Virus record (IMG/VR): IMGVR_UViG_3300048856_000121
Location: 1-40,643 of that record
Origin: a virus
Lineage: Duplodnaviria; Caudoviricetes
Reading direction: 5' to 3' (one strand)
Length of the DNA stretch: 40,643 bases
The translations under genes and the position numbers were made by a program. The notes beneath the pieces were generated by a model. The model worked only from the letters and a program-made list of their open reading frames with translations, had not been told where the DNA came from and did no database searches. Shown here one piece after another: positions 16,612 to 40,643 of the stretch; the stretch's first letter is position 1, and every line of letters starts with the position of its first letter.

Positions 16612-17232
16612 ATGCGCTTCTGGGCCTTGCTAGCCGCCCTGTTCTTGGCGGGATGTGCCTCAGGTGGACGAGAAACCTGCCCAGGATGCGGCAGAGGGGA
16701 CGCCGCTGCCCTTCAGGCGAAAACTGAAGCTTATGACCGGCAACGAGAAGCAGACCGCCAAGCCTACATCTACCGTGATCTTTCTCCTGCCGAGCGGACT
16801 AAACGCACCCGCGAGGACGAACTCCTGGAACGCGCCCTCACCAGTTCCCCCGACTACATGGCGGCCCTACGCCGCGCAGCCGTTGCCAATGTTGATGCTG
16901 AAGAGCCCCCTGCTCCAGCAGGCCGTCGCAACCGCGCCGCCGAGGCGCAGGCCCGAGAGCAGCGCATTACTGCCGAAGAGGCCAGACTGTCGGATGCTGT
17001 GGAGCTTCGCCGCCGCTCACGCCTGGCGCAGCAAGGTCAGAACGATCGCGCAGCCCGTCTGAATGCTGCCCGCGCTGCATGTGACGCCCAGGCCTCGTCT
17101 GTTGGGGCCGGCATCTACACGCCATACTCGCATCGCCAGGGTGTCCTTGGGTCAGCATTAACAGGCGCGATTGCTTCGGCGTCCGCTGAAGAGCAGGCTC
17201 GGGCCGGGTGCTACCGGGCATATGGCCTGTAG
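16612..17232 (+). CDS. Lipoprotein moron
   Basis: GAGGAG SD; signal peptide MRFWALLAALFLAG|C with LAGC lipobox; antisense to the tail operon. Confidence 0.8.
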   Translation: MRFWALLAALFLAGCASGGRETCPGCGRGDAAALQAKTEAYDRQREADRQAYIYRDLSPAERTKRTREDELLERALTSSPDYMAALRRAAVANVDAEEPPAPAGRRNRAAEAQAREQRITAEEARLSDAVELRRRSRLAQQGQNDRAARLNAARAACDAQASSVGAGIYTPYSHRQGVLGSALTGAIASASAEEQARAGCYRAYGL

Positions 17233-28605: not shown

Positions 28606-29124
28606 TTACGCTCTCGCCTGAGTGTTTGCAAGGGCTATTCGCTGCTTCTTTGCTTGGCTCGGGGTCAGGTCCACATCGACGTGTCGGCGGCGCCTGACAT
28701 CTGCCATGGCTGCCTCCAAGGCAGACTTGGCTGCAGACAGATTGCCCTCCACCCACTCATCCTCTCCGATTGCCTTGCCAAGTAGGCGGAGCGCTTCGGT
28801 CTCCACTTCCTTGGCGGCCTCCGGAACTACTGGAACGACATGCAGCATAACCACCCGCAGTGTGTTCGCCCGCTGCTGCAGGTTTGTCGTCATTCCTATC
28901 TTCAAGGCGCCGTCGCGCCCTAGGGCGATGTAGACCCACGCCCTCTCCCTCTGCTCCGGAAGGTGCCCACGGGTAGTGAGCGGGCGCGGCTTAGGGGCGG
29001 AGACCCGACGCGGTTGCTTCAGGCGTGCCGGATCGAAGACAAAGTTCCTCAACCCGTTCTCAGGATAGTCCGGACGGTAGTCGTCGCCCTCCAGGAACTC
29101 CTGGCTCATCTCAGGCTCACTCAT
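28606..29124 (-). CDS. GIY-YIG (T5orf172-like) nuclease domain protein
   Basis: WVYIAL...LKIGMTTNLQQR...E...EW motif; GGAGG SD; ATGA overlap. Confidence 0.75.
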   Translation of the reverse strand: MSEPEMSQEFLEGDDYRPDYPENGLRNFVFDPARLKQPRRVSAPKPRPLTTRGHLPEQRERAWVYIALGRDGALKIGMTTNLQQRANTLRVVMLHVVPVVPEAAKEVETEALRLLGKAIGEDEWVEGNLSAAKSALEAAMADVRRRRHVDVDLTPSQAKKQRIALANTQARA

Positions 29125-29636
29125 TTGAGCCTCCATTCGTCGGCCAGCCAGCCCAGGGCCTCGCGGGTCAGATGGGTAGCGCCCAGTGGCACAGCCTCGC
29201 CATGGACGGCTTGCCTCAGCCAGTAGGCATGGCGCTCACTGCATCGCCGCCTCACGTCATCCATGGCACGCTGGTACTCACGGTATGCCTTGACGGCCGC
29301 TTCCACCTGCTCCTGCGTGTAGATGTCCTCACCCGCTGGGGTGTAGGGCTTGCACACTTCGGACGGGTAGCCCTGCGGCTGAACGCGCTCGATCTTAGCC
29401 TCATCCCAAAGCCGGCGGAGCTTGCGCATGGCTGCCTGCTGACGGCCAGACCAGCCGCCAGGGTCGGCAGACGAAGCCTGTAGAGGGCGTGGCTCCCCAC
29501 TCGGCCGAGTGATGGCCCCTGCGGTGTCGTGGGCATAAGCCGTGGCCAGATACCGATCCCGGTCACTGTCGGTGGTCACATGCGCCCGGCTCTGCATCGT
29601 CGTGCCCACGGGCAGCGTGAGGCTGTGTCGGCTCAT
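29121..29636 (-). CDS. Hypothetical protein, candidate late-gene regulator (Q-like position)
   Basis: Near the end of the early-right operon; ends LREALGWLADEW-like; GAGGA SD. Confidence 0.65.
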   Translation of the reverse strand: MSRHSLTLPVGTTMQSRAHVTTDSDRDRYLATAYAHDTAGAITRPSGEPRPLQASSADPGGWSGRQQAAMRKLRRLWDEAKIERVQPQGYPSEVCKPYTPAGEDIYTQEQVEAAVKAYREYQRAMDDVRRRCSERHAYWLRQAVHGEAVPLGATHLTREALGWLADEWRLK

Positions 29637-30292
29637 GCTGATTTCCTCATCTGTATATACGATTTAACTTGCGTCGCGCTGCGTTCGTGTATATACAAAT
29701 AGCCATGCGCTACTCCTTCGACCCCGCCAAGGCCGCCTCCAACCTCACCAAGCACGGCGTGGCCTTCGAGGCGGTGGAGGGTTTCGAGTGGGAGTGGGCG
29801 CTGGTGATCGCTGACGTGCGGTTCGACTACGCTGAGCCCCGCATGCTGGCCCTGGCGCCGATTGGGGACAGGCTGCATGCGCTGGTGTTCTCCGTGGAGC
29901 GCCGCGCCGTTCGGGCGATCAGCCTGCGGATCGCGAGCAAGAAGGAGAACAGGCTCTATGAAGCGGAAGCTTAGGATGCCGACTGACGCCGAAGAGGCCG
30001 CCATCCAGCAGGGCATCGCGGCTGATCCGGAGAACCCGGAGTGGTCGGAGGAGGACTTCGCCCGAGCACGGCCAGCCGTCGAGGTGCTGGGGCAGGAGAT
30101 GGTTGACGCGCTGGCGCGACGGCGCGGGCGGCAGAAGGCGCCGGTGAAGGAAGCGGTATCGCTGCGCCTCGATGCGGACGTGGTGCGAGCCTTGCGTGAC
30201 AGCGGCCCTGGCTGGCAGAGCCGCGTCAACGACACGCTGCGGAAGGCGGTGCTGGGCAAGGCGAGCTGAGGAGGGAGCGCCGGCGCCATCAC
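29633..30292 (-). CDS. Antisense bridge ORF spanning brnTA
   Basis: GTGA overlap at start with GAGGAG SD, ATGA overlap at end; product not protein-like. Confidence 0.35.
   Translation of the reverse strand: MMAPALPPQLALPSTAFRSVSLTRLCQPGPLSRKARTTSASRRSDTASFTGAFCRPRRRASASTISCPSTSTAGRARAKSSSDHSGFSGSAAMPCWMAASSASVGILSFRFIEPVLLLARDPQADRPNGAALHGEHQRMQPVPNRRQGQHAGLSVVEPHVSDHQRPLPLETLHRLEGHAVLGEVGGGLGGVEGVAHGYLYIHERSATQVKSYIQMRKSA
29652..29699 (+). promoter_or_regulatory. brnTA promoter with two GTATATAC palindromic operators
   Basis: TTGCGT (29669-74), 17 nt, TATACA; palindromes at 29653-60 and 29688-97; no SD, so probably leaderless. Confidence 0.65.
29705..29974 (+). CDS. brnT: BrnT family ribonuclease toxin
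   Basis: FDPAKAASNLTKHGVAFE, DYAEPR, RAISLRIASKKE. Confidence 0.93.
   Translation: MRYSFDPAKAASNLTKHGVAFEAVEGFEWEWALVIADVRFDYAEPRMLALAPIGDRLHALVFSVERRAVRAISLRIASKKENRLYEAEA
29958..30269 (+). CDS. brnA: BrnA family antitoxin (ribbon-helix-helix)
   Basis: RGRQKAPVKEAVSLRLDADVV...GPGWQSRVNDTLRK. Confidence 0.93.
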   Translation: MKRKLRMPTDAEEAAIQQGIAADPENPEWSEEDFARARPAVEVLGQEMVDALARRRGRQKAPVKEAVSLRLDADVVRALRDSGPGWQSRVNDTLRKAVLGKAS

Positions 30293-30600
30293 CGCCCCCT
30301 CTCCTCATCCTTCGCGGCTCCGGGCTGAGTAGCTCTAATCCGAAGTTTGCGCAGACGCCGGGCCGCCGCTTGCTCGCGCTGGGACCAAGGGGACTGCGAT
30401 GCCCCTGCCCTGGACTGATCAAAGGGTACAGGATCCCCGCTGGGTCGGGTGACGTAGGAGTTGCCGCCGAGTGCTGCGGCCGTCTCCATGATCCTGTCCC
30501 GGTCTGCTTCGCTCATGCACCAGGGCTGAGGTCCGGTGCCGACGCGGATGCTGCCGGCATACTCAGTGACATGGGCCACGCCTTTCCGGGTGACATTCAT
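30289..30600 (-). CDS. Truncated paralog of 29121..29636
   Basis: Shared DRDR...TRPSG.P.P...WS.R.QAA.R.LR.L. Confidence 0.6.
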   Translation of the reverse strand: MNVTRKGVAHVTEYAGSIRVGTGPQPWCMSEADRDRIMETAAALGGNSYVTRPSGDPVPFDQSRAGASQSPWSQREQAAARRLRKLRIRATQPGAAKDEERGR

Positions 30601-31067
30601 GCAAGCGCTCCTACCTCACGGAGACGCTTGGTTTCTGCCTTCACTGCGGTGGCCGCTGCCTCAGCCAGGTTCACCCAATGGGTTCCGTCCGCATCCATCT
30701 TGACCAGCAGACCCATTGCCCAGGCAGCGATGAGGAAGCTTCCCTCGCCCACATAGTAATCCTGCCCCGGGGCCAGGTTCTGGAAGTACCGCTCAGCTAC
30801 GTGCTTCCAGCCATAGGTGGAGCGCCGCTTGTTCACGCCCTTGATGCGGGGCGCTTGGTCAATGAAGCGGGCCGCGCGTAGCACCTGAGCCACGCCCCAT
30901 TCACCTGTCATCTCCGCCCGCCGCTCAGCCAGCCGTTCCGGCCCGCTTCGCCGCATGTCGTAGCCGTTCCAGTGGCCGCCCCAGTGCAGGTGCACATCCT
31001 GAGCGCGATACATCTCAATGACGGAGACCGCGTTCTGCTCGATCTCGGCCAGGGTCAGCACCTTCAT
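30597..31067 (-). CDS. Hypothetical protein, 156 aa
   Basis: STYGWKHVAERY...YVGEGSFLIAA; overlaps at both ends. Confidence 0.75.
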   Translation of the reverse strand: MKVLTLAEIEQNAVSVIEMYRAQDVHLHWGGHWNGYDMRRSGPERLAERRAEMTGEWGVAQVLRAARFIDQAPRIKGVNKRRSTYGWKHVAERYFQNLAPGQDYYVGEGSFLIAAWAMGLLVKMDADGTHWVNLAEAAATAVKAETKRLREVGALA

Positions 31068-31438
31068 TAGCCGGCACTCCAGAAGGGCTTCTTGCTGTTG
31101 GATGGCTCACCCGGGACCATGGCCCGGGCCCAGGCGCATTCACGGATCTGGGCGAAGGCTGCGATCGCCTGCTCCATGACCTTGCTGTCAGCGCATCCAT
31201 AGAAGACGACGATCTCGGAGAAGACCCACTCCGGGGTCATGGTGCGCTCGCCCTTCTTCAGCCAGTCGGTGAAGCAGGCCCCGTGCTTGTACTGAGGCTT
31301 GCGCCATTCAGCCGGGACGCCAGTGTGCATCCATTCCTTGTCTCGGCCGTCCCGGATGACGAACATGTCCGTCACTCGCCTCGCCTCATTCAGGTTCCAG
31401 CCGATGAGCGCTTTGGCTGCGGGGATGAGGTCAGTCAC
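31067..31438 (-). CDS. Hypothetical protein, 123 aa
   Basis: GTG start MTDLIP with GGAGG SD; coupled to neighbours. Confidence 0.7.
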   Translation of the reverse strand: MTDLIPAAKALIGWNLNEARRVTDMFVIRDGRDKEWMHTGVPAEWRKPQYKHGACFTDWLKKGERTMTPEWVFSEIVVFYGCADSKVMEQAIAAFAQIRECAWARAMVPGEPSNSKKPFWSAG

Positions 31439-31664
31439 GGATAGCCTCCACGGCGCTGGTGAGGCTGGACAGGGTCTCGTTGATGATGCGGAGCTGCCCG
31501 CCGACGAACTCCACCGTGCCGTCTGGACGGGCCAAATCCCGCATGTGCTGCGCCACCTCTTCCTGTGCCTGGGCAAGCTTGAGGATCGCATAGGCAATAG
31601 CGAAGTGGCCGTCCACTGTCGCCCGGTTGGCGATGATCTCTTCCAACGCGTTCTGCATGCTCAC
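31431..31664 (-). CDS. Hypothetical protein, 77 aa
   Basis: GTGA overlap with the helicase stop; GGAGG SD. Confidence 0.7.
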   Translation of the reverse strand: MSMQNALEEIIANRATVDGHFAIAYAILKLAQAQEEVAQHMRDLARPDGTVEFVGGQLRIINETLSSLTSAVEAIRD

Positions 31665-33562
31665 TCCTCCCCCGTTGCAATGCTTGGGGTGTCATGGAAA
31701 CCAGGGCTGGAAAGCCGGCCCGTGCGGACATCGAGCTTCAGTCGGGCCTTCTGATACCGCTGGCCGAAGGCTTCGTAGCGAGCCTTCCAACAGTGCACTT
31801 CAGGGAAGCCCTCATCCCGGCGATAAACCGTGACGCCGAGGTCCGCCTTGTTGAACCAGTTGGCGCCGCCGTTGATGTCGTAGCCATCGGCCACAGGATA
31901 GCTGCCGGTCTTCGGGTCCTTCTGCAGCTTGGTCGGGTGGGCCGCGATGATGATCCCCATCCCTTCCGCCCTGCCCCAGGCCTTGAGCTTCCTCAGCCAG
32001 CGGCCGGTGTACTGTGTCTCGCTCTCTTGCCGCGTGAACTGGTGCTCGAACTCGTTCCAGGGGTCGAGAACCAGCAGGCTGCGAGGATACCTGCGCTTTG
32101 CCTCCTCGGCCCTTGCCAGAACCCAATCGAGGGTCATCTCGACGTCCGGATTGTCGGACCATAGGAACGAGATGCGACGGGCGATCCATTCCTCAGCCTT
32201 CTGCAGAATGTCCTTGGGGACGTAGCCACCGGCCTCCCGCATTGGTCGCCCGAGGAAGACGGACGCAACACGCAAGGCCAGCGTCTCAGGCCGGTTGTCC
32301 TCCGGGCTGCACCAGACGATGCCGATGTCGTGCTTGGCCGCCGTATAGGTCAGCCAGGTCCGCAGCAGGCTCGACTTGCCATGGCTGGGCACGCCGGTGA
32401 CGATCGTGAGCCAACCACCGCCTGCCGGGATCTTCGCGATCTCATCCAGATTGGCGATGCCGCTGACCATGCCGGTCGGCTCCCGGCCGGTGTGCAGGAA
32501 CGCATGCAGCGCACCCGGCTTCAGATCGAAGATGCCCTCCAGCGGCCAGGGCTCCGCAGCCTCAATGGCAGCCCGCACTACCTCGGCACCGTGGTGCATG
32601 AGGACATCGTTGGCGTCTTTGCAGCCGTCCGGCCAAGTCACGCGCCAGCACCGGGCGCGGCCCAGGCGACGAGCCAGTTCCTCCGCGAGGTAGCCGCCCG
32701 GCACGTCGGCGTCCGTCGCGATGACGAACCGCTTCACCTCGGCCAGCACGTCGCCGCAGTTCTCCAGGGGGTCGAAGCGCTGGTCATCCTGCCGCTTGGG
32801 ATCATCCTCGCTTAGCAGCTTGTTCGGCGAGCCATCGGGCAGGCTGACCACCTGGCGGAGCCCGGCTTCCCAGCAGGCCATCACGTCCATCTCACCCTCA
32901 ACCAGGACCACCACGTCCGGGGTCTCGATCGCGTCGGCGTTGAACAGCGTGCGCAGGCTGTCGCGGTCCTGCATGAACTGCTTCCGGCAGGAGCGGAACT
33001 TCCGGTTCACCACCTCGCCGCGCCAACGGTAGGGGAACACGGCCGTTTCAGCCGGGGACCAGATCAGTTCACCCTCTCCGTCCTTCACGGGCTTGCCGTC
33101 CTCGTCCAGTTCCGGCCACCGCTTGGTGGTGCCGTACACGCCGAAGGCCGCCACGGTCTCCTCGCTGATCCCCCGCCGGGCGAAGAAGCCCAGCAGAGCC
33201 TCGTCACGCCGCTGCATCTCCGGCGGGTCCAGGACCGGCGCCACCGCCGGCGCGCGCTCGCGGCGGAGGAGGGGTTGGTCGAGAACCTGCGCCGCGCCCC
33301 GGCCATCGCTGATCCTGCCGCATCCGGGGACGATGCTGGAGCCCGGGCACTTGCCGCGGAAGCAGTGCCAGGTCGCGCCCAGCCCATCCGCATCGACCTT
33401 CACCGACAAGCTGGTTTCCTTGTCGCCGCACGCCGGGCAGACGACCTTCGCGTCCCGGCCAGCCACCAGCCGGGCCCGCCCCGCGCGGATGCCGGCCTCG
33501 GCGAAGATGTCCGCCAGGGTGTCGCCGACGACCAGGCGCTTCCCTTCGATGCGCTTGGCCAT
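31661..33562 (-). CDS. Bifunctional primase-helicase (Twinkle / T7 gp4-like)
   Basis: Zn finger CPAC...WHCFR..C; TOPRIM EGEMD and DAD; Walker A GVPSHGKS; LDPWNE; AHPTK; NKADLG. Confidence 0.92.
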   Translation of the reverse strand: MAKRIEGKRLVVGDTLADIFAEAGIRAGRARLVAGRDAKVVCPACGDKETSLSVKVDADGLGATWHCFRGKCPGSSIVPGCGRISDGRGAAQVLDQPLLRRERAPAVAPVLDPPEMQRRDEALLGFFARRGISEETVAAFGVYGTTKRWPELDEDGKPVKDGEGELIWSPAETAVFPYRWRGEVVNRKFRSCRKQFMQDRDSLRTLFNADAIETPDVVVLVEGEMDVMACWEAGLRQVVSLPDGSPNKLLSEDDPKRQDDQRFDPLENCGDVLAEVKRFVIATDADVPGGYLAEELARRLGRARCWRVTWPDGCKDANDVLMHHGAEVVRAAIEAAEPWPLEGIFDLKPGALHAFLHTGREPTGMVSGIANLDEIAKIPAGGGWLTIVTGVPSHGKSSLLRTWLTYTAAKHDIGIVWCSPEDNRPETLALRVASVFLGRPMREAGGYVPKDILQKAEEWIARRISFLWSDNPDVEMTLDWVLARAEEAKRRYPRSLLVLDPWNEFEHQFTRQESETQYTGRWLRKLKAWGRAEGMGIIIAAHPTKLQKDPKTGSYPVADGYDINGGANWFNKADLGVTVYRRDEGFPEVHCWKARYEAFGQRYQKARLKLDVRTGRLSSPGFHDTPSIATGEE

Positions 33563-34539
33563 CAGTGATACCCTCCGACGCCGTTCAGCGCCGGCGCATC
33601 CGCCGGGTCATGGTCGAGCAGCAACGCCTGCTCCCAGTCGATCCCCCAAAGCTCCCCCTTCTCATCGCGGGTCTTCGGGCTGAGGAGCCAGTCCAGCGAG
33701 GCAGCCCAGCCGCGCTCGTTCTCGCCCCGGTGGTGCGGTGAGGCAGCGCAGGCGCGGAACAGGTCGCGCAGGGCGCCGACGCCGCCGTGGGACTTTTCCA
33801 GCGCCTTGGCGATCAGCTCCGGCCGGCCCTTCTTCCGCAGCCCATCGGCGCGCGGCATCTTGCCCTGGACGCTGTCGTTCCAGGCATCCAAGACCGCCAG
33901 CATCGTCTCCTCGTCCGGGGCTGACTTGCGGGCCCGGCGGCGCGCCGATGCAGCTGCAGGCAGAACCGCCACCGAGGCGGGAGGCTGGAACAGATCATCG
34001 CCAGCCCCTCCCCCGCTTGCGGGGGGTAAGGGGGGAGAGACTTCTGAACGAAGTGAAGAAGTCTCTTCTTCCTTCTTCCTCCCTCCTCCTATCTGCGGAG
34101 GAATTTCCCCACTGGTTCCGAACTGGTTCCCCACCGGTACGGAACCACTACCACCTTCATCATCAGTGAGTTCGGAACCAGTTCCGACCGGGCGCACGTA
34201 CAGCCGCAGATCGTTCGGAAGCGGATGCACGTATTTGGGCTTCTTAGGGCGCTGGAACTTGCAGAAGTTCCGAATAGCTCCGTACTGACGGCCGCCTGAA
34301 GTGAACAGCCGGACCATGTTCAGGCGCTCCAGGTGGGGAAGCAGTTCCCCAACTCCGGCCGTCACAGCGGGCAGGTACCGCGCCTTGAGGGTGAGAGGCT
34401 TCACCTCGAACACCCCATTGTCGTCGGCCTCCATGAGCAGGCCGAGCCACAGCGGGATCGCCAGCGGGGCGTCGATGGTCAGCTGCATGAACGCTTCGTC
34501 GGTATGCAGGCCGGGGTGAATGCTGCGGATGCGCGCCAT
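33562..34539 (-). CDS. Phage replication initiator protein
   Basis: MARIRSIHPG...ADDNG...IRNFCKFQRPKKP N-terminal domain; C-terminal GENERGWAASLDWLL. Confidence 0.88.
   Translation of the reverse strand: MARIRSIHPGLHTDEAFMQLTIDAPLAIPLWLGLLMEADDNGVFEVKPLTLKARYLPAVTAGVGELLPHLERLNMVRLFTSGGRQYGAIRNFCKFQRPKKPKYVHPLPNDLRLYVRPVGTGSELTDDEGGSGSVPVGNQFGTSGEIPPQIGGGRKKEEETSSLRSEVSPPLPPASGGGAGDDLFQPPASVAVLPAAASARRRARKSAPDEETMLAVLDAWNDSVQGKMPRADGLRKKGRPELIAKALEKSHGGVGALRDLFRACAASPHHRGENERGWAASLDWLLSPKTRDEKGELWGIDWEQALLLDHDPADAPALNGVGGYH
34100..34190. repeat. Iterons of the putative replication origin
   Basis: ACTGGTTCC at 34111 and 34122, inverted GGAACCA at 34141 and 34174, next to a pyrimidine tract inside the initiator gene. 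Confidence 0.7.
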
Positions 34540-34540
34540 G

Positions 34541-34705
34541 TCAGTGCACTTTCCGCTGGGCAATGACGGCATCGACCATTTCTTCCGCCTGCTGGCGGCT
34601 AATGCCGAACTGCCCCATAGCCATCTCGACGAAGATCTCGCGCGGGAACTCGACACCACGGAGGTCGCAATCAGGCGGCGTCATGGGCTCAGGCAGCTTG
34701 CTCAC
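34541..34705 (-). CDS. 54-aa ORF with a DUF1376/YdaU-like N-terminal motif
   Basis: MSKLPEPMTPPDCDLRGVEFP...; GTGA overlap; stop 1 nt before the initiator start; not in the ORF track. Confidence 0.6.
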   Translation of the reverse strand: MSKLPEPMTPPDCDLRGVEFPREIFVEMAMGQFGISRQQAEEMVDAVIAQRKVH

Positions 34706-34821
34706 TGATCACCCCCATCACGGCCCTTACGGGCCTGCTCCAGGCACCACTGCCCAGCGTCAATCAGGCGTTCGCCCGTCCAGACCAGGACGTCCGAAGC
34801 CTTCCGCCACATCCACCGCAT
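34702..34821 (-). CDS. Hypothetical protein, 39 aa (MRWMWRKASD...)
   Basis: Stop overlaps the next GTG start. Confidence 0.4.
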   Translation of the reverse strand: MRWMWRKASDVLVWTGERLIDAGQWCLEQARKGRDGGDQ

Positions 34822-35146
34822 GGACTTTTTCCCTGGCTTCGAGCGCGGCCAGCTCGGCGCGGAGGCGCGCGGCTCGCTCGCGGATGAGATGAATTCGCGC
34901 CAGCCGAAGGGCATCTGCTTCCTCGGCTGGTATGAGGCGGGCCTGGCGGTACCAATGACCGCGGGCCCGCGCGTAGCTGAGGCCGAGAGCGCGTGCGGCA
35001 CGACCGATGGCCGCCTTGACGCTCTCGCCTGGCACGGCAGGCTCGGCGGCCTCCCGCACGATCTGCTGTGCTTCCTCAGGAACAGTGCACGACATCACGG
35101 CCCCCTCGGACGGATTGTCCGAGCTTGGAACTCGATTGGTGGACAC
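34760..35146 (-). CDS. CII-like HTH regulator (start uncertain, 35146 or 35095)
   Basis: SVKAAIGRAARALGLSYARARGHWYRQAR HTH; between cro and replication genes. Confidence 0.75.
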   Translation of the reverse strand: MSTNRVPSSDNPSEGAVMSCTVPEEAQQIVREAAEPAVPGESVKAAIGRAARALGLSYARARGHWYRQARLIPAEEADALRLARIHLIRERAARLRAELAALEAREKVHAVDVAEGFGRPGLDGRTPD

Positions 35147-35978
35147 CTCGAACAGCTCCTCTGTCAGGGTTGCTCTCGCCAGAGACGACAACCTGTTGGG
35201 CAGAGGAGTGAGGAATGGAGATAACCGCCGGCGTCAGCGAGGACGGGCGGCAGGCGCGGATCCAACTGGGCTGGTCTGAGGTTGCGACCCTCGGGCCAGT
35301 CGAGATGGAAGCCACGATCTGGAACCTGGTGGCGGCGCGTGCGGCCATGCAGCCACCGCGCCGCCCAACCTGCTTCGCCTCCATGCGGATTGTCTTGGGA
35401 GACGGCCTGCACGCCGAGAACGACGTGAACGGCAAGCTGTTGGCCGTGCACCATCCGGGGCTGGGCTGGGTCGGCGTCACGGTCAGCAAGGAGGACGAGA
35501 CGCTCATCACGAACGCCTTCACCACGCCGCCGGCGTCACCCATCATCTGGTGGCCGCGAGACAAGCCGCAGGATGAGCCGCCATTGGGGAGGTAGGCGCC
35601 ACAGCCAGGTTGCCGATGAACCACTCCGTTGCCGGAATGGTCCGTCGGCTTCACCATGGGGGTGCCACCTAACCCATGGAGACCTGAATGGCTGAGAAGG
35701 TAATCGTTCCGGTAAAGACCGACAGCGGATCGCCTGAGCGTGTGGCTTATGATCTGTTCCGTGACTTCGTGAACGCAGGACTGCTCGTGACAGACGGTGA
35801 CCGCGTGCGGAATGCCCTTGATCTGTATGCCCGCTGCCTGCGCGCAACGAGGGGGTACCGCCCCGTGGACGATTGATCGGTGGTGGCCGGCGCCCTCTCC
35901 GGAACGGCGCCGGCCATGACGAAATTCATGGCAAGTGAGGCCACGGACGGCGCGACGGGATTGGAGGCTTAGCATCAC
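35076..35978 (-). CDS. Antisense bridge ORF (300 aa) spanning two plus-strand morons
   Basis: GTGA overlap with the cro stop plus GGAGG SD; ends just inside the CII-like gene. Confidence 0.35.
   Translation of the reverse strand: MMLSLQSRRAVRGLTCHEFRHGRRRSGEGAGHHRSIVHGAVPPRCAQAAGIQIKGIPHAVTVCHEQSCVHEVTEQIISHTLRRSAVGLYRNDYLLSHSGLHGLGGTPMVKPTDHSGNGVVHRQPGCGAYLPNGGSSCGLSRGHQMMGDAGGVVKAFVMSVSSSLLTVTPTQPSPGWCTANSLPFTSFSACRPSPKTIRMEAKQVGRRGGCMAARAATRFQIVASISTGPRVATSDQPSWIRACRPSSLTPAVISIPHSSAQQVVVSGESNPDRGAVRGVHQSSSKLGQSVRGGRDVVHCS
35215..35595 (+). CDS. Hypothetical protein, 126 aa (moron)
   Basis: GAGGA SD; LLAVHHPGLGWVGV motif; strong codon bias. Confidence 0.7.
   Translation: MEITAGVSEDGRQARIQLGWSEVATLGPVEMEATIWNLVAARAAMQPPRRPTCFASMRIVLGDGLHAENDVNGKLLAVHHPGLGWVGVTVSKEDETLITNAFTTPPASPIIWWPRDKPQDEPPLGR
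35688..35876 (+). CDS. Small hypothetical protein, 62 aa (moron)
   Basis: GGAG SD; SPERVAYDL...LDLYARCLRA helical hairpin. Confidence 0.7.
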   Translation: MAEKVIVPVKTDSGSPERVAYDLFRDFVNAGLLVTDGDRVRNALDLYARCLRATRGYRPVDD

Positions 35979-36241
35979 GCCGCCCTCCCCTCTGATGTGA
36001 CACTCTGTGTTGTCACCTGGTTGGGCTTGGGCAGGTCGAAGAAGTCCGTCGGCGATAGGAGGATGGGAGGACGCATTCGCTCTCCCGCTGCAATTATTTC
36101 GGGGATGCGCCTGGCAGGCACAACGCCAGTAGAAGCCCAGCCCCAAACGGTAGATTGCTTAAGACCAAGCACCCGCGCCAGGGCCGATTGACCGCCAAAT
36201 GCGGTTATAACGCGGTGGGACGGCTTCGAATAATCGCTCAT
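35975..36241 (-). CDS. Cro-like / YdaS-like HTH regulator
   Basis: VITAFGGQSALARVLGLKQSTVWGW...VPARR; divergent from the repressor. Confidence 0.88.
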   Translation of the reverse strand: MSDYSKPSHRVITAFGGQSALARVLGLKQSTVWGWASTGVVPARRIPEIIAAGERMRPPILLSPTDFFDLPKPNQVTTQSVTSEGRAA

Positions 36242-36295
36242 TGCGGTTGTCGACCTACCGCAAATTCCCGTTGGAGGTCAACCGCATTCTTCGAT
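36191..36295. promoter_or_regulatory. OR-like operator array (ACCGC-N5-GCGGT) and divergent promoters
   Basis: Sites at 36191, 36233, 36257, 36281 (last three 24 bp apart); minus-strand -35 TTGACC at 36276-81. Confidence 0.75.
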
Positions 36296-36307
36296 AGGTG
36301 CTAGGTC

Positions 36308-36886
36308 ATGAAGAGCCCTACCAGACGTAAGGATCCAGGAGAGGCTGAGCGTCCAGTTTGGGCGAAGAAGCTGATCGAGCTACGCCAACGGCAAGGCCTC
36401 TCTCAGGCCGCATTAGCGGTAGAGGCTGGCCTGTCCCAGTCAGCTATAGCCGACTATGAGAGAGGGAGATCCACGCCCAATATCAGAATGATGAACCGGC
36501 TGGCCAGTGCCTTGAAGGTATCCGTTACCGAGTTCGTAGACACGGACCACCTACATCAGCGCAAAGTACTAAGTGACGATGATGCTTTAGTCGGGAATAG
36601 AATACAGGAACCTGTCAACGTTTCTTATACAGACAGCACTGAATATGATCCTTACTTCATGACTATGCACAGGAAGATAGCCGAGATTGCTAAAGAGAGC
36701 AAAATTGCGGCATGGAACAGAAGCTCAATGATTGTGTTCCTCACTCGCCAAGCCTGGGCAAAAGTGATGACGGAAGATCAAACTAAGTCTATCGATGACA
36801 GAGTGGCTAAGGCACTGATCGACATCCAACGCTTCTACGACATCCTGAAAGCTGCCCCATTTATGGGACCAGATCCGACCGACTAA
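36308..36886 (+). CDS. CI-like XRE repressor without a recognisable S24 peptidase domain
   Basis: LIELRQRQGLSQAALAVEAGLSQSAIADYERGRSTP HTH_3 motif. Confidence 0.88.
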   Translation: MKSPTRRKDPGEAERPVWAKKLIELRQRQGLSQAALAVEAGLSQSAIADYERGRSTPNIRMMNRLASALKVSVTEFVDTDHLHQRKVLSDDDALVGNRIQEPVNVSYTDSTEYDPYFMTMHRKIAEIAKESKIAAWNRSSMIVFLTRQAWAKVMTEDQTKSIDDRVAKALIDIQRFYDILKAAPFMGPDPTD

Positions 36887-36927
36887 CGCTTTTAGCGGTT
36901 GTCATAACCGCTTTTTGCGGTAAAACT
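36885..36927 (+). promoter_or_regulatory. OL-like operators and pL-like promoter
   Basis: AACGC-TTTTA-GCGGT (36885) and ACCGC-TTTTT-GCGGT (36907) overlap TTGTCA...TAAAACT. Confidence 0.75.
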
Positions 36928-36955
36928 GCCTCCGTACCCCACGGAGGCACTTACC

Positions 36956-37789
36956 GTGCATTCGCTCCCCAACACTCCCGACCTGCTTGTCGCGGCCGAC
37001 ATCGCCGCGGCGCAGGGTCCGGCGCCCGCCCTGTCCATCGTCATCCATGGCGGTGATGCTCGCATCCTCGACACCGACTTGGCTAAGCGACTTGGCTTCG
37101 GCCTTCCTCGTGAAATCCGTCGGCTGATAGCGCGTCACGGTGACACGCTATCCAAGATGGGCCCGCTCCCCCAGGTGGAGGAGGTTGTCGGCAAGGGGCA
37201 GAAGGCCAACGCCTACTATCTGAACCGCAAGCAGGCGATCTTCATCACCGCGAAGTCCGAGACGCCGCGCGCGACGGACATCACCATTGAGATCGTTGAG
37301 CGCTTCGACGCCTATGAGCGCGGCGGCGCTGCCGGTGTTCGGACGCTGGCTCGGCCCACTGCGGTCAAGGAAGTCGCCGCCACCTTCCGCGCCTACCACG
37401 GCATTGCCCGCCTGGCCGGCCTCGACCGCAACCAGGCATCCCTGTCTGCCGGCCGGGCCACCAAGGCTGTCACCGGCGTGGACCCGCTGGAAGCCCTGGC
37501 CATCAAGCACCTTGTCGCACCCCAGCAGGAGGCGGCGCTGACGCCCTCCGACCTGGGCGCGCGCCTCGGCGGCAAGTCCGCTGTCGCGGTCAACAAGATC
37601 CTCGCCCAACGTGGTCTGCAAACCAGCCATCGAGCCGCTAAGGGCCAGCAATACTGGCAGCCGACCGCCGCGGGTGAACCGCACGCGGTGTGGCTCGATA
37701 CCGGCAAGCGCCACAGCGATGGCACCCCCGTTCGGCAGCTCAAGTGGGCTGCCTCCATCCTCCCCCTCATCGAAGGAGGCGCTTCGTGA
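36956..37789 (+). CDS. Phage antirepressor-like protein
   Basis: RILDTDLAKRLGF...YYLNRKQAIFITAKSET N-terminal domain; LTPSDLG...VNKIL..RGLQ...QLKW C-terminal domain; GGAGG SD. Confidence 0.8.
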   Translation: MHSLPNTPDLLVAADIAAAQGPAPALSIVIHGGDARILDTDLAKRLGFGLPREIRRLIARHGDTLSKMGPLPQVEEVVGKGQKANAYYLNRKQAIFITAKSETPRATDITIEIVERFDAYERGGAAGVRTLARPTAVKEVAATFRAYHGIARLAGLDRNQASLSAGRATKAVTGVDPLEALAIKHLVAPQQEAALTPSDLGARLGGKSAVAVNKILAQRGLQTSHRAAKGQQYWQPTAAGEPHAVWLDTGKRHSDGTPVRQLKWAASILPLIEGGAS

Positions 37790-38019
37790 TCTCCGCTCCC
37801 TTTTCTGCCCACCCGGCGGTTTCGCGCTGCCTGACCCGCGCTGTCGAGGCCGCCGATCGCGGTGACCGGCTTGAGGCGCAGTACTGGCAGTCCGCTGCCG
37901 CTGCGGCGCACCGCCGCGCAGCTGTGCCAAGCCCTGTCCGTCCCGGCATTCTCACCCGGCTCGTGCGGCGGTTTACAAAACCGCTGGCTGGCCCTGTTGG
38001 TAAGGAGCGCCTCGCATGA
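37786..38019 (+). CDS. Hypothetical protein, 77 aa
   Basis: AGGAGG SD, GTGA start overlap, ATGA end overlap. Confidence 0.6.
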   Translation: MISAPFSAHPAVSRCLTRAVEAADRGDRLEAQYWQSAAAAAHRRAAVPSPVRPGILTRLVRRFTKPLAGPVGKERLA

Positions 38020-38813
38020 GCACGCGCACCAAGCCGAACACCGAGACCTTCACCGCCCCAAAGGCAGTGGCTGCAATCGCGGCGAAGGTTGCCAAGCCCG
38101 CCCGCCGCAAGACCAGCGCCAAGGCGGCAGAAGACCCTGACGCGTGGATCGAAGGCCTGGTTAACGACCACATTGCCAACATCGAGGCATTGAACCTCGG
38201 GCCAGATGAAGGCCCTGAAGCCGATGCTCTCTGGGCGCAGTACGAGGGCACACGCGACGCCATCGGCCACGCCAAGCCGGTCGGCATTCGCGGGTTGCAG
38301 GCCAAGGCACGCGCAGCCAAGCGCGAGGCCTGGACCCCGAAAGGCGAGAAGCCGGCGAACACCCCGGCTGCGGATTATGCCTGGGAGTTGGTCAACGCCA
38401 TCCTGCGCCTTGGCCCCGGGCTGGATCTTACCGGGGCGGACAACGAATTGATCGCCGACCACGAAGCCCTGGATGCGCTGGAGCGGCAGTGGTTTGCCCT
38501 GTTCGACACGATTGAGAATGACAGGGAACGCGACGCAGCGGCGGCACCGATCAGAGCGGCACAGGAGCCGATCATGGACCGCCTGGCGCGGCGCCGGGCC
38601 ACGACTGCTGCCGGCCTAGCTGCCCGTCTCCGCTCCCTCCTCGTGATGGAGCCTGAGAACGACTACGACGCGAACGCCAACAGTTCTGGCGCCGATGCGG
38701 ACGAGCGCCTGGAAAGCATGATCCTCCGCGACTTGAGCGATCTGCTAGGCGTTCCGACGAAGGGGCCGCTGGCGCAGCAAGAGGCGGCCTCGAAGGCGGC
38801 AGGGGCCACCTGA
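38016..38813 (+). CDS. Hypothetical helical protein with internal repeat
   Basis: AAGGAG SD; repeats AKPVGIRGLQAKARA / RRATTAAGLAARLRS. Confidence 0.75.
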   Translation: MSTRTKPNTETFTAPKAVAAIAAKVAKPARRKTSAKAAEDPDAWIEGLVNDHIANIEALNLGPDEGPEADALWAQYEGTRDAIGHAKPVGIRGLQAKARAAKREAWTPKGEKPANTPAADYAWELVNAILRLGPGLDLTGADNELIADHEALDALERQWFALFDTIENDRERDAAAAPIRAAQEPIMDRLARRRATTAAGLAARLRSLLVMEPENDYDANANSSGADADERLESMILRDLSDLLGVPTKGPLAQQEAASKAAGAT

Positions 38814-38941
38814 TGGAACACATCAGCGCCCCCATCGTCCGGGTCGTGGCGAACACTATGCAGAAGATGGTGGAGGCAAAGAAAGCCCCGCCTCCCTACC
38901 CGCACCCACCGCGTCACCCGTCACAGGAGCGCCGGTCGTGA
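38813..38941 (+). CDS. Hypothetical protein, 42 aa (MEHISAPIVRVV...)
   Basis: TGATG start overlap, GTGA end overlap. Confidence 0.45.
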   Translation: MEHISAPIVRVVANTMQKMVEAKKAPPPYPHPPRHPSQERRS

Positions 38942-39498
38942 TCGCAAAGAAGAAGTACCAGGGCTTCCGCATTCCGTCGGATGCGGCCGAAGCGGCGGCA
39001 GCCCTGACATTCGACGAGGCACGGCGTGATCCGGCCGGATCAGGGGGCTCTGACGAACGCGCACTCCTTCGGGTTCAGGTTTATGAACAGATAGCTCGCA
39101 GCTCGCCGGTGCAGCGGACGTCCCTGACGCTCGCCAGCTCAACCTGGTCAAGGCCGGCCTCTGCGATGAAGGTGGAGAGGATATCTTCGGCACTGTCTTG
39201 CAGTGAGCCGGCTGGGAAGTTGGCCACCACCAGTGCCATCACTCGTAATCCCCAGAGGCGTGTGATGGCGTCACCCTCGGCAATGACATCACTCACCAGA
39301 TCCAAAGCAAGCTCACACGTTTCTAGTTTTACCCGTTCCGCCCCATGCGTCATGGCTATGCTCTCGACGTTCTCACCAAGTGGTAGTTCCGGCAACCGCC
39401 ACACGCACAGGTGGAAAAATGTAAAGATTTGCAAAGCGAGACCGGGACAGTTACGGGCCTTGAGCAATACCGCCCAGGCCGGGGAGTGCGCAGCATGA
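38938..39498 (+). CDS. Bridge ORF spanning an antisense gene
   Basis: GGAG SD, GTGA start overlap, ATGA end overlap. Confidence 0.35.
   Translation: MIAKKKYQGFRIPSDAAEAAAALTFDEARRDPAGSGGSDERALLRVQVYEQIARSSPVQRTSLTLASSTWSRPASAMKVERISSALSCSEPAGKLATTSAITRNPQRRVMASPSAMTSLTRSKASSHVSSFTRSAPCVMAMLSTFSPSGSSGNRHTHRWKNVKICKARPGQLRALSNTAQAGECAA
39081..39353 (-). CDS. Hypothetical helical protein, paralog A
   Basis: Aligns with 39724..40020 (LAL...TR...L..MA..VA..P.G..QD.AED.L...IA...L). Confidence 0.7.
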   Translation of the reverse strand: MTHGAERVKLETCELALDLVSDVIAEGDAITRLWGLRVMALVVANFPAGSLQDSAEDILSTFIAEAGLDQVELASVRDVRCTGELRAICS

Positions 39499-39698
39499 AG
39501 GCCTGCAGCAATCCGGCAAATCGCGCAGCCGCGGAGGACATGATCGAGCTCCTGACCCAACGGCTCGACGCCATGGACGGCGATCCGCACCTGGAACTGG
39601 ATCAGGATGGGGAGTTAGAGGATGCCGAAGAGAGCCAGCAGGCGCCGACGCTCGCTCACTATCACGCCACCGATCGGCGGATCAGGAAGGCGGCATGA
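39495..39698 (+). CDS. Acidic hypothetical protein
   Basis: IELLTQRLDAMDGDPHLE motif; ATGA overlaps at both ends. Confidence 0.7.
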   Translation: MKACSNPANRAAAEDMIELLTQRLDAMDGDPHLELDQDGELEDAEESQQAPTLAHYHATDRRIRKAA

Positions 39699-40234
39699 AG
39701 GGCGCCACCATCCTCCAAAATCCTCAGAACTGCTTTCGCAAACTCGGCTCAGCTTGTTCGTTCAAGCTTAGGCGTTTCATGCCGGCTTTTAAACCGCCCC
39801 GCCGGAACCTCCGGATGACGTCCATTTCGTCATGCTCGAGGTCGCAGCGAGCGATTGCAGCAGCAAGTCGATCCTCAGCCGCATCCTGGGCGTCTCCAGG
39901 TGGGTATCGCGCGACAATGACAGCCATCAGGCATAAGGAGGTGAAGCGGGTGCTGGGTGGCGATGTATGGAAGCCTCGTTCCGTCACCGACAGAGCCAAG
40001 TCCAGTTCGGCTTCGGACATCAGCCCGCCCCTCAATCCCATCGACCCACCCCCTTATGCTTCGTTAAGAGCGCGAGCCGACGGCAGCGGCGCGCGTTCAT
40101 GCTCAGGAAGGTTCAAATCGCGGCCCCCGTGCGTTCCAAACGTGACATTGTCGTGGCATCGCCGGGCGGGGGGTTCAGAAATTTCTGCCTGCTTAGGGCT
40201 CGCGCAAGAAGTGAATGGCGATGCAGCCCCGTGA
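39695..40234 (+). CDS. Bridge ORF spanning an antisense gene
   Basis: ATGA start overlap; stop lies within the first codons of the excisionase. Confidence 0.3.
   Translation: MKGATILQNPQNCFRKLGSACSFKLRRFMPAFKPPRRNLRMTSISSCSRSQRAIAAASRSSAASWASPGGYRATMTAIRHKEVKRVLGGDVWKPRSVTDRAKSSSASDISPPLNPIDPPPYASLRARADGSGARSCSGRFKSRPPCVPNVTLSWHRRAGGSEISACLGLAQEVNGDAAP
39724..40020 (-). CDS. Hypothetical helical protein, paralog B (alternative start 40041)
   Basis: Aligns with 39081..39353; GAGG SD. Confidence 0.7.
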   Translation of the reverse strand: MSEAELDLALSVTERGFHTSPPSTRFTSLCLMAVIVARYPPGDAQDAAEDRLAAAIARCDLEHDEMDVIRRFRRGGLKAGMKRLSLNEQAEPSLRKQF

Positions 40235-40643
40235 GCCTACCCGCCGCCTCCTCCTGCCGCCGGGCATGGAGCCGCGCTACCTCTCGCGGGAGGAGGCCGC
40301 GGCCTACCTAGGCGTGTCGGCCGACACCTTCGACGACGAGGTGGCATCCGGCATGTGGCCGGCGGCCAGGCGCCGCGGCAGCAAGGGCGCTCGCCTGACC
40401 TGGGACCGGAAGGTGCTCGACACCTATGCGGACCAGGCCGCCGGCATCCTACCCTCCCCCGCTCCCGAGCCGGAGGCTGCCTTCAGCCCGCCGGCGCCGA
40501 TCCGAGCCCTGGCGGCCGACGCAAGCCTGCCACCGCCGCTCCACACGCAGCCTAAGCTGACGGCCGAGGCCGCAGCCCTTCGAGGTATTCAGAATGCCCC
40601 GCCCCGCAACCGGCCTAAACACCGTCAGCCGACGCCGGCCTGA
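40215..40643 (+). CDS. Excisionase-like (AlpA/HTH_17) protein
   Basis: RYLSREEAAAYLGVSADTFD...G.WP...WDRKVLD; overlaps the likely integrase start. Confidence 0.82.
   Translation: MAMQPREPTRRLLLPPGMEPRYLSREEAAAYLGVSADTFDDEVASGMWPAARRRGSKGARLTWDRKVLDTYADQAAGILPSPAPEPEAAFSPPAPIRALAADASLPPPLHTQPKLTAEAAALRGIQNAPPRNRPKHRQPTPA
40594..40643 (+). CDS. Probable integrase 5' end (runs off the window)
   Basis: GAGG SD then MPRPATGLNTVSRRRP; position after the excisionase. Confidence 0.5.
   Translation, partial: MPRPATGLNTVSRRRP

Follow-up and report, generated by a model that had tools for sequence, protein, structure and literature searches.

Comparison With Described Systems

Operons that contain a gene on the opposite strand are known as noncontiguous operons, and have been described for menE-menC-MW1733-ytkD of Staphylococcus aureus and for tha-1/ith-1, orf11, orf17, and orf72 of the S. 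aureus phage 80alpha (PMC11087260, PMC11034616, PMC7154746). The virus record IMGVR_UViG_3300048856_000121 (Caudoviricetes) has the same arrangement of an opposite-strand gene inside an operon. This 40,643-base record is complete in the window (i.e., the entire stretch of 40,643 nucleotides analyzed) and has a lambdoid layout, as indicated by Pfam and PHROGs searches of its proteins. At four inserts in its early region, opposite-strand cargo genes lie between co-oriented operon genes, which corresponds to the noncontiguous-operon layout. Each insert is spanned on the operon strand by a long stop-free open reading frame (ORF), referred to as a bridge (B1 to B4).

In phage 80alpha, the two strands are used alternately in lysogeny and lysis, and silencing of the cargo by the lytic transcript has been shown (PMC11087260). 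The stretch opposite an inverted gene in noncontiguous operons is described as untranslated (PMC11034616, PMC7154746), whereas in this phage it is an open frame coupled to its neighbors. Moreover, read-through in those operons is ascribed to runaway transcription in Gram-positive bacteria (PMC11034616), whereas this is a proteobacterial phage. How transcription crosses an inverted gene without a following ribosome, in bacteria that couple the two processes, is an open problem in that field (PMC11034616). The nearest precedent for a frame maintained for its translation is the reverse ORF of Culex narnavirus 1, which is also stop-free over a real gene and for which translation itself, and not the product, may matter (PMC8316113). 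However, the narnavirus is a eukaryotic RNA virus with one genome-long frame, and has no operon, no coupling to neighbors, and no Rho. Termination-reinitiation at ATGA/TGATG overlaps involves the same -4/-1 junctions as those at the bridge ends, but is described for functional gene pairs (PMC6728339), whereas the bridges are filler frames that face other genes. Searches of an open-access library yielded no account of such coupled frames across inverted genes of phages.

In phage lambda, the N/nut-tR1 position is the cro-cII interval. B2 lies in the same slot and would meet the same polarity problem; lambda uses an antiterminator protein and an RNA site, whereas a reading frame is found here. 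The shadow ORFs of GC-rich genomes are long antisense frames without a product, mostly in register with the gene and with random ends. In contrast, the bridges occur in all registers, extend over spacers, and have their ends fixed at gene junctions. Judged from the sequence, the arrangement matches a noncontiguous operon whose intervening strand appears to be kept translatable, a pattern that is real, recurrent, and amounts to more than GC bias.

Bridge ORFs in the Early Operons

The inverted cargo of the early operons is spanned by coupled stop-free frames in this phage and in most of the related prophages tested. On the minus strand, B1 (29633..30292; 219 codons) starts with a GTGA on the stop of the gene at 30600-30289 and ends with an ATGA on the start of the gene at 29636-29121, while B2 (35076..35978; 300 codons) runs from the GTGA at the cro stop to 17 nt inside the cII-position gene. 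On the plus strand, B3 (38938..39498; 186 codons) starts with a GTGA on a 42-aa ORF (38813-38941) and ends with an ATGA on a 67-aa gene (39495-39698), and B4 (39695..40234; 179 codons) starts at an ATGA and ends 17-20 nt inside the excisionase-like gene (xis). All four frames are open at the coordinates given by the initial annotation, and its description of starts at upstream stops and ends at or just past downstream starts holds. Each bridge begins within the stop of the upstream gene (GTGA or ATGA), behind a purine-rich motif that resembles a Shine-Dalgarno (SD) sequence. Stop/start overlaps of -4 or -1 are present at all four 5' ends and at two of the four 3' ends, namely those of B1 and B3, where the bridge stop and the next start form one ATGA; the frames of B2 and B4 continue 17-20 nt into the following gene. 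The downstream partners of B1, B2, and B3 have SD-like motifs of their own, and the SD at the xis start is weak.

As first annotated, four of the six cargo genes are out of codon register with their bridge. These are brnA, moron 1, and paralogs A and B; the other two, brnT and moron 2, are in register. The accompanying claim that out-of-register frames are richer in stops is borne out by the phage core genes, with 0.023 stops per codon compared to 0.0066 in register. This can be refined, as the out-of-register frame used by the bridges is wobble-aligned (i.e., it shares third codon positions with the cargo). The four wobble-aligned cargo proteins contain only 0-1 Tyr each, suggesting that this frame is cheaper to keep open in these genes than on average. 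Across wobble-aligned-bridged cargos, Tyr accounts for 5 of 1410 residues, compared to 24 of 1129, although this is partly a consequence of the open frame and is not separate evidence.

With the bridges included, the left arm (7.6 kb) is translatable from cro to position 28606 through 13 overlapping links without a gap, and the right arm (3.7 kb) from the antirepressor to xis through seven links, also without a gap. Unlike the early arms, the late operon has gaps of 38-97 nt at several junctions. The inverted lipoprotein-like gene of the late operon (16612..17232, plus strand) has no bridge, in agreement with the initial annotation; all three antisense frames contain stops (6, 8, and 3) and no coupled relay of overlapping frames is present. 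The contrast between early and late operons relies on this insert as the sole late case. A scan of the operon strands of the early region found no terminator-like site in either arm, which, together with the coupled junctions, suggests that the flanking genes are transcribed jointly across the inserts. Likewise, none of the 65 proteins matched an N family in Pfam or PHROGs, consistent with the earlier remark that no N-like antiterminator is evident, with a divergent N being possible.

Probability of Open Frames in This Phage

GC content, the cargo protein, and the upstream junction are all preserved in the null models. As in-register bridges cannot be tested by permuting the codons of a gene, resampling was included as a further null. 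For the single frame observed, four null models give probabilities of 0.008-0.20 per bridge and a product of 1e-5 to 1e-6. The most lenient null, in which multi-step relays are allowed, gives 0.05-0.35 and a product of 3e-4, which we regard as the fair figure. Codon shuffling, the check proposed with the initial annotation, accordingly gave a divided answer: the four bridges together are improbable, while any one of them is unexceptional at 65% GC. The low joint chance derives from cargo codons and spacers alike. Among core genes, in-register antisense windows are open in 39-51% of cases at 180-300 codons (46% at 220 codons), whereas wobble-aligned antisense windows of 220 codons are open in only 0.4% in this genome. 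Composition and codon usage, which would account for a shadow ORF, do not explain the openness observed.

The cro-to-cII Slot in Related Prophages

Close relatives of this phage are prophages of Acetobacteraceae, including one of Teichococcus deserti (primase 74%). The cII-position gene has 28 matches in 24 of the 401 genomes of the family, and the interval bounded by the stops of cro and of the cII-position gene was tested at 21 of these loci (19 with inverted cargo and two without); the identity of Cro was confirmed by PHROGs in 17 of the 21. A strictly coupled relay, in which internal links are limited to -4/-1 overlaps, spans 12 of the 19 loci with cargo, compared to 2.7 expected (P = 2e-9), such that the survey called for by the initial annotation gives independent support. 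When only the cargo codons are resampled, the expectation is 3.7 (P = 4e-8). The excess persists after removal of three loci that share moron 1 (9/16, P = 1e-7) and of the two strongest loci with the lowest nulls as well (7/14, P = 5e-5). Under a looser rule that admits ten overlap offsets, 15 of 18 loci have a relay, compared to about 3.3 expected (sum of nulls), and the three that fail do so by 1, 7, and 14 nt.

The cargos vary between phages, all three registers are used (9, 9, and 3), and GC content ranges from 52 to 73%. The relay persists in the loci with 52-56% GC (L065, L066, and L061). On the opposite strand of the same slot DNA, most loci have gaps. In all five phages with moron 1 in this slot, moron 1 is covered in the wobble-aligned frame. 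The loci left out are those cut by contig ends (L141 and L035), those that look chromosomal (L142 and L146), and one without inverted cargo (L143). Three more (L144, L145, and L139, the last from the moron 1 search) were viewed later without a null. L153 has no inverted cargo in the slot, and the distant primase loci (L005-L026) were not used.

Cargo Homologs and Host DNA

Among inverted islands in the host chromosome, one of 23 has a coupled relay. For brnTA, the antisense frame is open across both genes in eight of 46 homologs; these 46 are the 50 brnT loci minus four in which no brnA was called, and 30 further brnT matches fall outside this count. The eight open frames comprise three evident prophages (G211 and the near-identical G104 and G087), one ambiguous context (G275), and four chromosomal loci. 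In G211, brnTA is located directly after cII, which is another slot than here, and has its own frame of 219 codons with -4 links. G104 and G087 have an open frame across brnTA, but gaps in the wider relay. Of 15 homologs in the paralog family, 14 are closed in the frame that B3 and B4 use, and 12 are open in the in-register frame. In the phage the pattern is reversed, as paralogs A and B have four and three in-register stops, respectively, and none in the bridge frame.

In genome G062 (L138:9793-11024; C11, about 119.4-120.6 kb), a chromosomal operon for nitrite/nitrate reductase contains an inverted brnTA. A nirD-like gene, which we take to be such from its Rieske-type motifs, has a C-terminal part that continues stop-free along the strand opposite brnA and brnT, as far as an ATGA on the start of a molybdopterin oxidoreductase gene. 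An apparent frameshift lies upstream in the assembly.

Proposed Mechanism and Alternative Explanations

The initial annotation attributed the bridges to selection for translation of the early mRNA. Selection for an unbroken, coupled path on the operon strand is supported by the shuffles, the related prophages, and the mostly closed non-phage homologs of the cargo. The pattern has exceptions among relatives. Nascent RNA that is left untranslated has exposed rut sites, which leads to polarity, and antisense transcription inside genes is kept down by Rho (PMC12360218); Rho is present in three of three related Acetobacteraceae genomes. We consider it reasonably probable that the bridges let ribosomes cross the inserts, such that Rho does not end the early transcript. 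Ribosomes that finish the upstream gene would reinitiate at the GTGA or ATGA, as -4/-1 overlaps couple translation (PMC6728339), translate a meaningless bridge peptide, and then hand over to the next gene. In this way, translation would extend over mildly C-rich, gene-antisense RNA, which is the kind that Rho normally terminates. Such frames may arise mainly by sieving, in which an inverted insert survives in these slots only if it offers an antisense frame that is open and in phase, or that a relay can complete; stops that arise later in the bridge frame may subsequently be purged. By analogy with noncontiguous operons, lysogens probably express the cargo, and lytic transcription probably lowers this expression.

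Several observations weigh against this explanation. No bridge is individually significant (P up to 0.35), and the C/G ratio of the bridged strand is only 1.03-1.30. B2 and B4 pass a TGA beside the downstream start in another frame. In relatives, relays are found in only three of seven inserts in other slots of the left arm and two of 12 on the cI side, several of the latter being at operon boundaries. One prophage (L144 of G146) is a real counterexample, with two inverted cro-cII genes, a 34-nt gap, and no bridge, and L139 and L145 fail the strict rule by 2 and 9 nt, respectively. The cargo genes were called by a simple in-house gene finder, and few of them have family matches. The host control is unmatched, with an ATGA or GTGA upstream junction in only four of the 23 islands, and the eight of 46 open brnTA frames are close to the Poisson expectation (mean of two stops), some being chromosomal. 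Finally, L168, a non-phage locus with the closest homolog of paralog B, is already open in the B4 frame, suggesting that part of B4 was inherited. This exception points to frames that were sieved from inserts already open, with new stops then purged, rather than to wholesale recoding.

Two alternatives, in which Rho plays no part, predict the same sequence pattern as protection from polarity. The bridge may serve coupling only, delivering ribosomes to the downstream start while transcription continues regardless. Nearly all links are overlaps of the -4/-1 type that couples translation (PMC6728339), and the weak SD at the xis start would fit such a role. However, the SD-like motifs of the B1, B2, and B3 partners indicate that de novo initiation looks possible, and a short ORF before the downstream start would provide coupling without 180-300 open codons; this explanation is unlikely. 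Alternatively, ribosome traffic may protect the early mRNA against duplex formation with the cargo mRNA and against decay by RNase III/E. The bridged stretch is exactly the one complementary to the cargo mRNA, RNase III is known to process duplexes of this kind (PMC7154746), and ribosome protection has been proposed for narnavirus reverse ORFs (PMC8316113). Against this, RNase III was tested in phage 80alpha and appears not to be the main route (PMC11087260), and the relays here extend over spacers beyond the cargo coding sequences. Shielding is improbable.

Relic junctions combined with chance in GC-rich DNA may also be invoked, with inserts that replaced the inside of small coupled genes and inherited their start/stop overlaps. 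The frequent openness of in-register windows in core genes, the short ORFs (55-73 aa) in the cro-cII slot of the cargo-free relatives L070 and L073, and the pre-existing open frame of L168 all fit such an origin. Nevertheless, nulls that preserve GC content, cargo, and junctions still give the low probabilities reported above for this phage (3e-4) and across relatives (2e-9), the relay is maintained at 52-56% GC, and the reverse strand is mostly gapped. This explanation is largely rejected and is improbable. The last one considered is that the bridges are functional overlapping genes. Translated antisense overlapping genes under selection have reportedly been observed in Pseudomonas (PMC8850804), and B1 and B2 align with antisense frames in relatives. 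However, these alignments are confined to the cargo coding sequences and are forced by the cargo, while bridges over different cargos are unrelated and vary in length from about 50 to 300 codons. The bridges have negative coding scores and a Ser/Arg-rich composition, whereas the cargo strands are coding-like. B2 has no homolog among 5.8 billion proteins of similar length, and none of the four bridges occurs as a called protein in the protein collection. Spacer variants in soil strains show a neutral ratio of 10 nonsynonymous to four synonymous changes (14 sites, among the 40 variants listed of 686), such that purifying selection on an antisense protein was not detected in this small sample. 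No bridge stop results from the 22 strain variants listed, which is uninformative with fewer than one expected. Taken together, the bridge peptide itself seems irrelevant, and a functional overlapping gene is very improbable. The reverse possibility, in which the bridge is real and the cargo is the shadow, was rejected, as the cargo strand is coding-like in all 25 cases checked and brnT, brnA, moron 1, and the paralogs have homologs.

If the bridges do protect the early transcript from Rho, they offer a sequence-level answer to the problem of crossing an inverted gene, and one that is testable by a single silent nucleotide change. More broadly, we suggest only tentatively that proteobacterial temperate phages without N replace protein antitermination by a continuously translatable early transcript, in which backward genes must be ambigrams with a reverse strand that acts as a bridge for ribosomes. 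If this is true, such a rule would determine the host genes that are eligible as morons, as well as the sites and frames open to phage cargo, toxin-antitoxin pairs for example. The same sieve would act in tightly coupled chromosomal operons, as in G062 from nirD through the inverted brnTA into nasA. In addition, it would account for a class of long "spurious" ORFs dropped by annotation and provide a design rule for inserting reverse cassettes without polarity.

Cargo Genes

The B1 cargo comprises a BrnT toxin gene (29705..29974, plus strand; PF04365, E = 3e-19), in register with the bridge, and a BrnA antitoxin gene (29958..30269, plus strand; PF14384, E = 1e-22), which is wobble-aligned. The two genes are adjacent and both pass the curated Pfam cut-offs, as expected for a bacterial type II toxin-antitoxin pair of the BrnT/BrnA family. 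The gene upstream of B1 (30289..30600, minus strand) is a truncated copy of the family of the gene at 29121-29636, with a new C-terminal tail that holds the SD and GTGA of B1. In the relative L001 (98% primase identity; L001:3768-4310), there is one intact gene of this family (180 aa) and no brnTA, suggesting that the brnTA insert came with a partial duplication or recombination. Direct and inverted repeats are found around TGTATATAC upstream of brnT (window 29649-29709), and these repeats within B1 are a candidate autoregulatory operator.

The B2 cargo consists of moron 1 (35215..35595, plus strand; 126 aa), which has four homologs inverted in the cro-cII slot of related prophages, and moron 2 (35688..35876, plus strand; 62 aa), which is followed by an 11-bp GC hairpin at 35884-35916. 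Short repeats that read MLGISPK-like in frame are located in the 5' region of cII-position genes of several relatives (window 35095-35190; L062, L065, L066, and L068 at the start of the cII-position gene). By position, and by analogy with lambda, these repeats could be sites of an establishment promoter that would also drive the inverted cargo.

Paralog A (39081..39353, minus strand; 90 aa) and paralog B (39724..40020, minus strand; 98 aa; 71% to L168) belong to one small family that is found outside prophages in Teichococcus genomes. Homologs are known for moron 1 and for both paralogs; in the metagenome contigs searched, paralog A has no match, and its weak atlas matches were left out of the analysis. 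A search for cargo promoters found no match to the sigma-70 consensus. One of the five upstream regions, that of paralog A (39354-39400), has a GAAC-N16-CGTC motif that begins 36 nt upstream of the gene (listed at 39317-39340, minus strand). We take this motif to resemble a general-stress promoter of the extracytoplasmic function (ECF) type.

Genome Layout and Early Arms

The cI and cro genes are back to back. The left early arm leads to the replication genes, and the right arm extends from the antirepressor to the excisionase-like gene, with a separate operon for late structural genes. The first left-arm gene encodes a Cro-like repressor (35975..36241, minus strand; PF15943, PF14549; phrog_35), and a CI-like repressor is encoded at 36308..36886 (plus strand; HTH_3, E = 4e-16). 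The downstream partner of B2 (34760..35095, minus strand; phrog_26665, unknown function) is cII-like by position only and has no match in GenBank phages. The downstream partner of B4 is the excisionase-like gene (40215..40643, plus strand; phrog_66). The 67-aa gene downstream of B3 has no match in the viral contigs searched. The downstream partner of B1 (29121..29636, minus strand), a conserved phage protein gene near the end of the left arm, has no match in the genome contigs searched; a Q label was not adopted, as its atlas matches are only phage clusters without names.

Operator-like palindromes (GCGGT..ACCGC) were found by a palindrome scan in the cro/cI interval (36243..36261) and in the cI/antirepressor interval (36895..36911). 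Palindromes of the form GCGGT-N7/9-ACCGC occur five times in the window, compared to 0.98 expected, with others at 37968-37984 and 34946-34962, and are candidate repressor operators. The presence of such a palindrome in both intervals suggests that the right arm is probably a second, separately repressed lytic operon.

In the T. deserti prophage (L002:3672-4588), small paralogous genes in both orientations lie in the interval between the last early gene and the late operon. Soil metagenomes contain DNA that is near-identical to this phage. Contigs of two soil runs join window position 31048 to 37755, skipping 6706 bases; this junction lacks the replication and immunity region and may represent a defective or satellite form.

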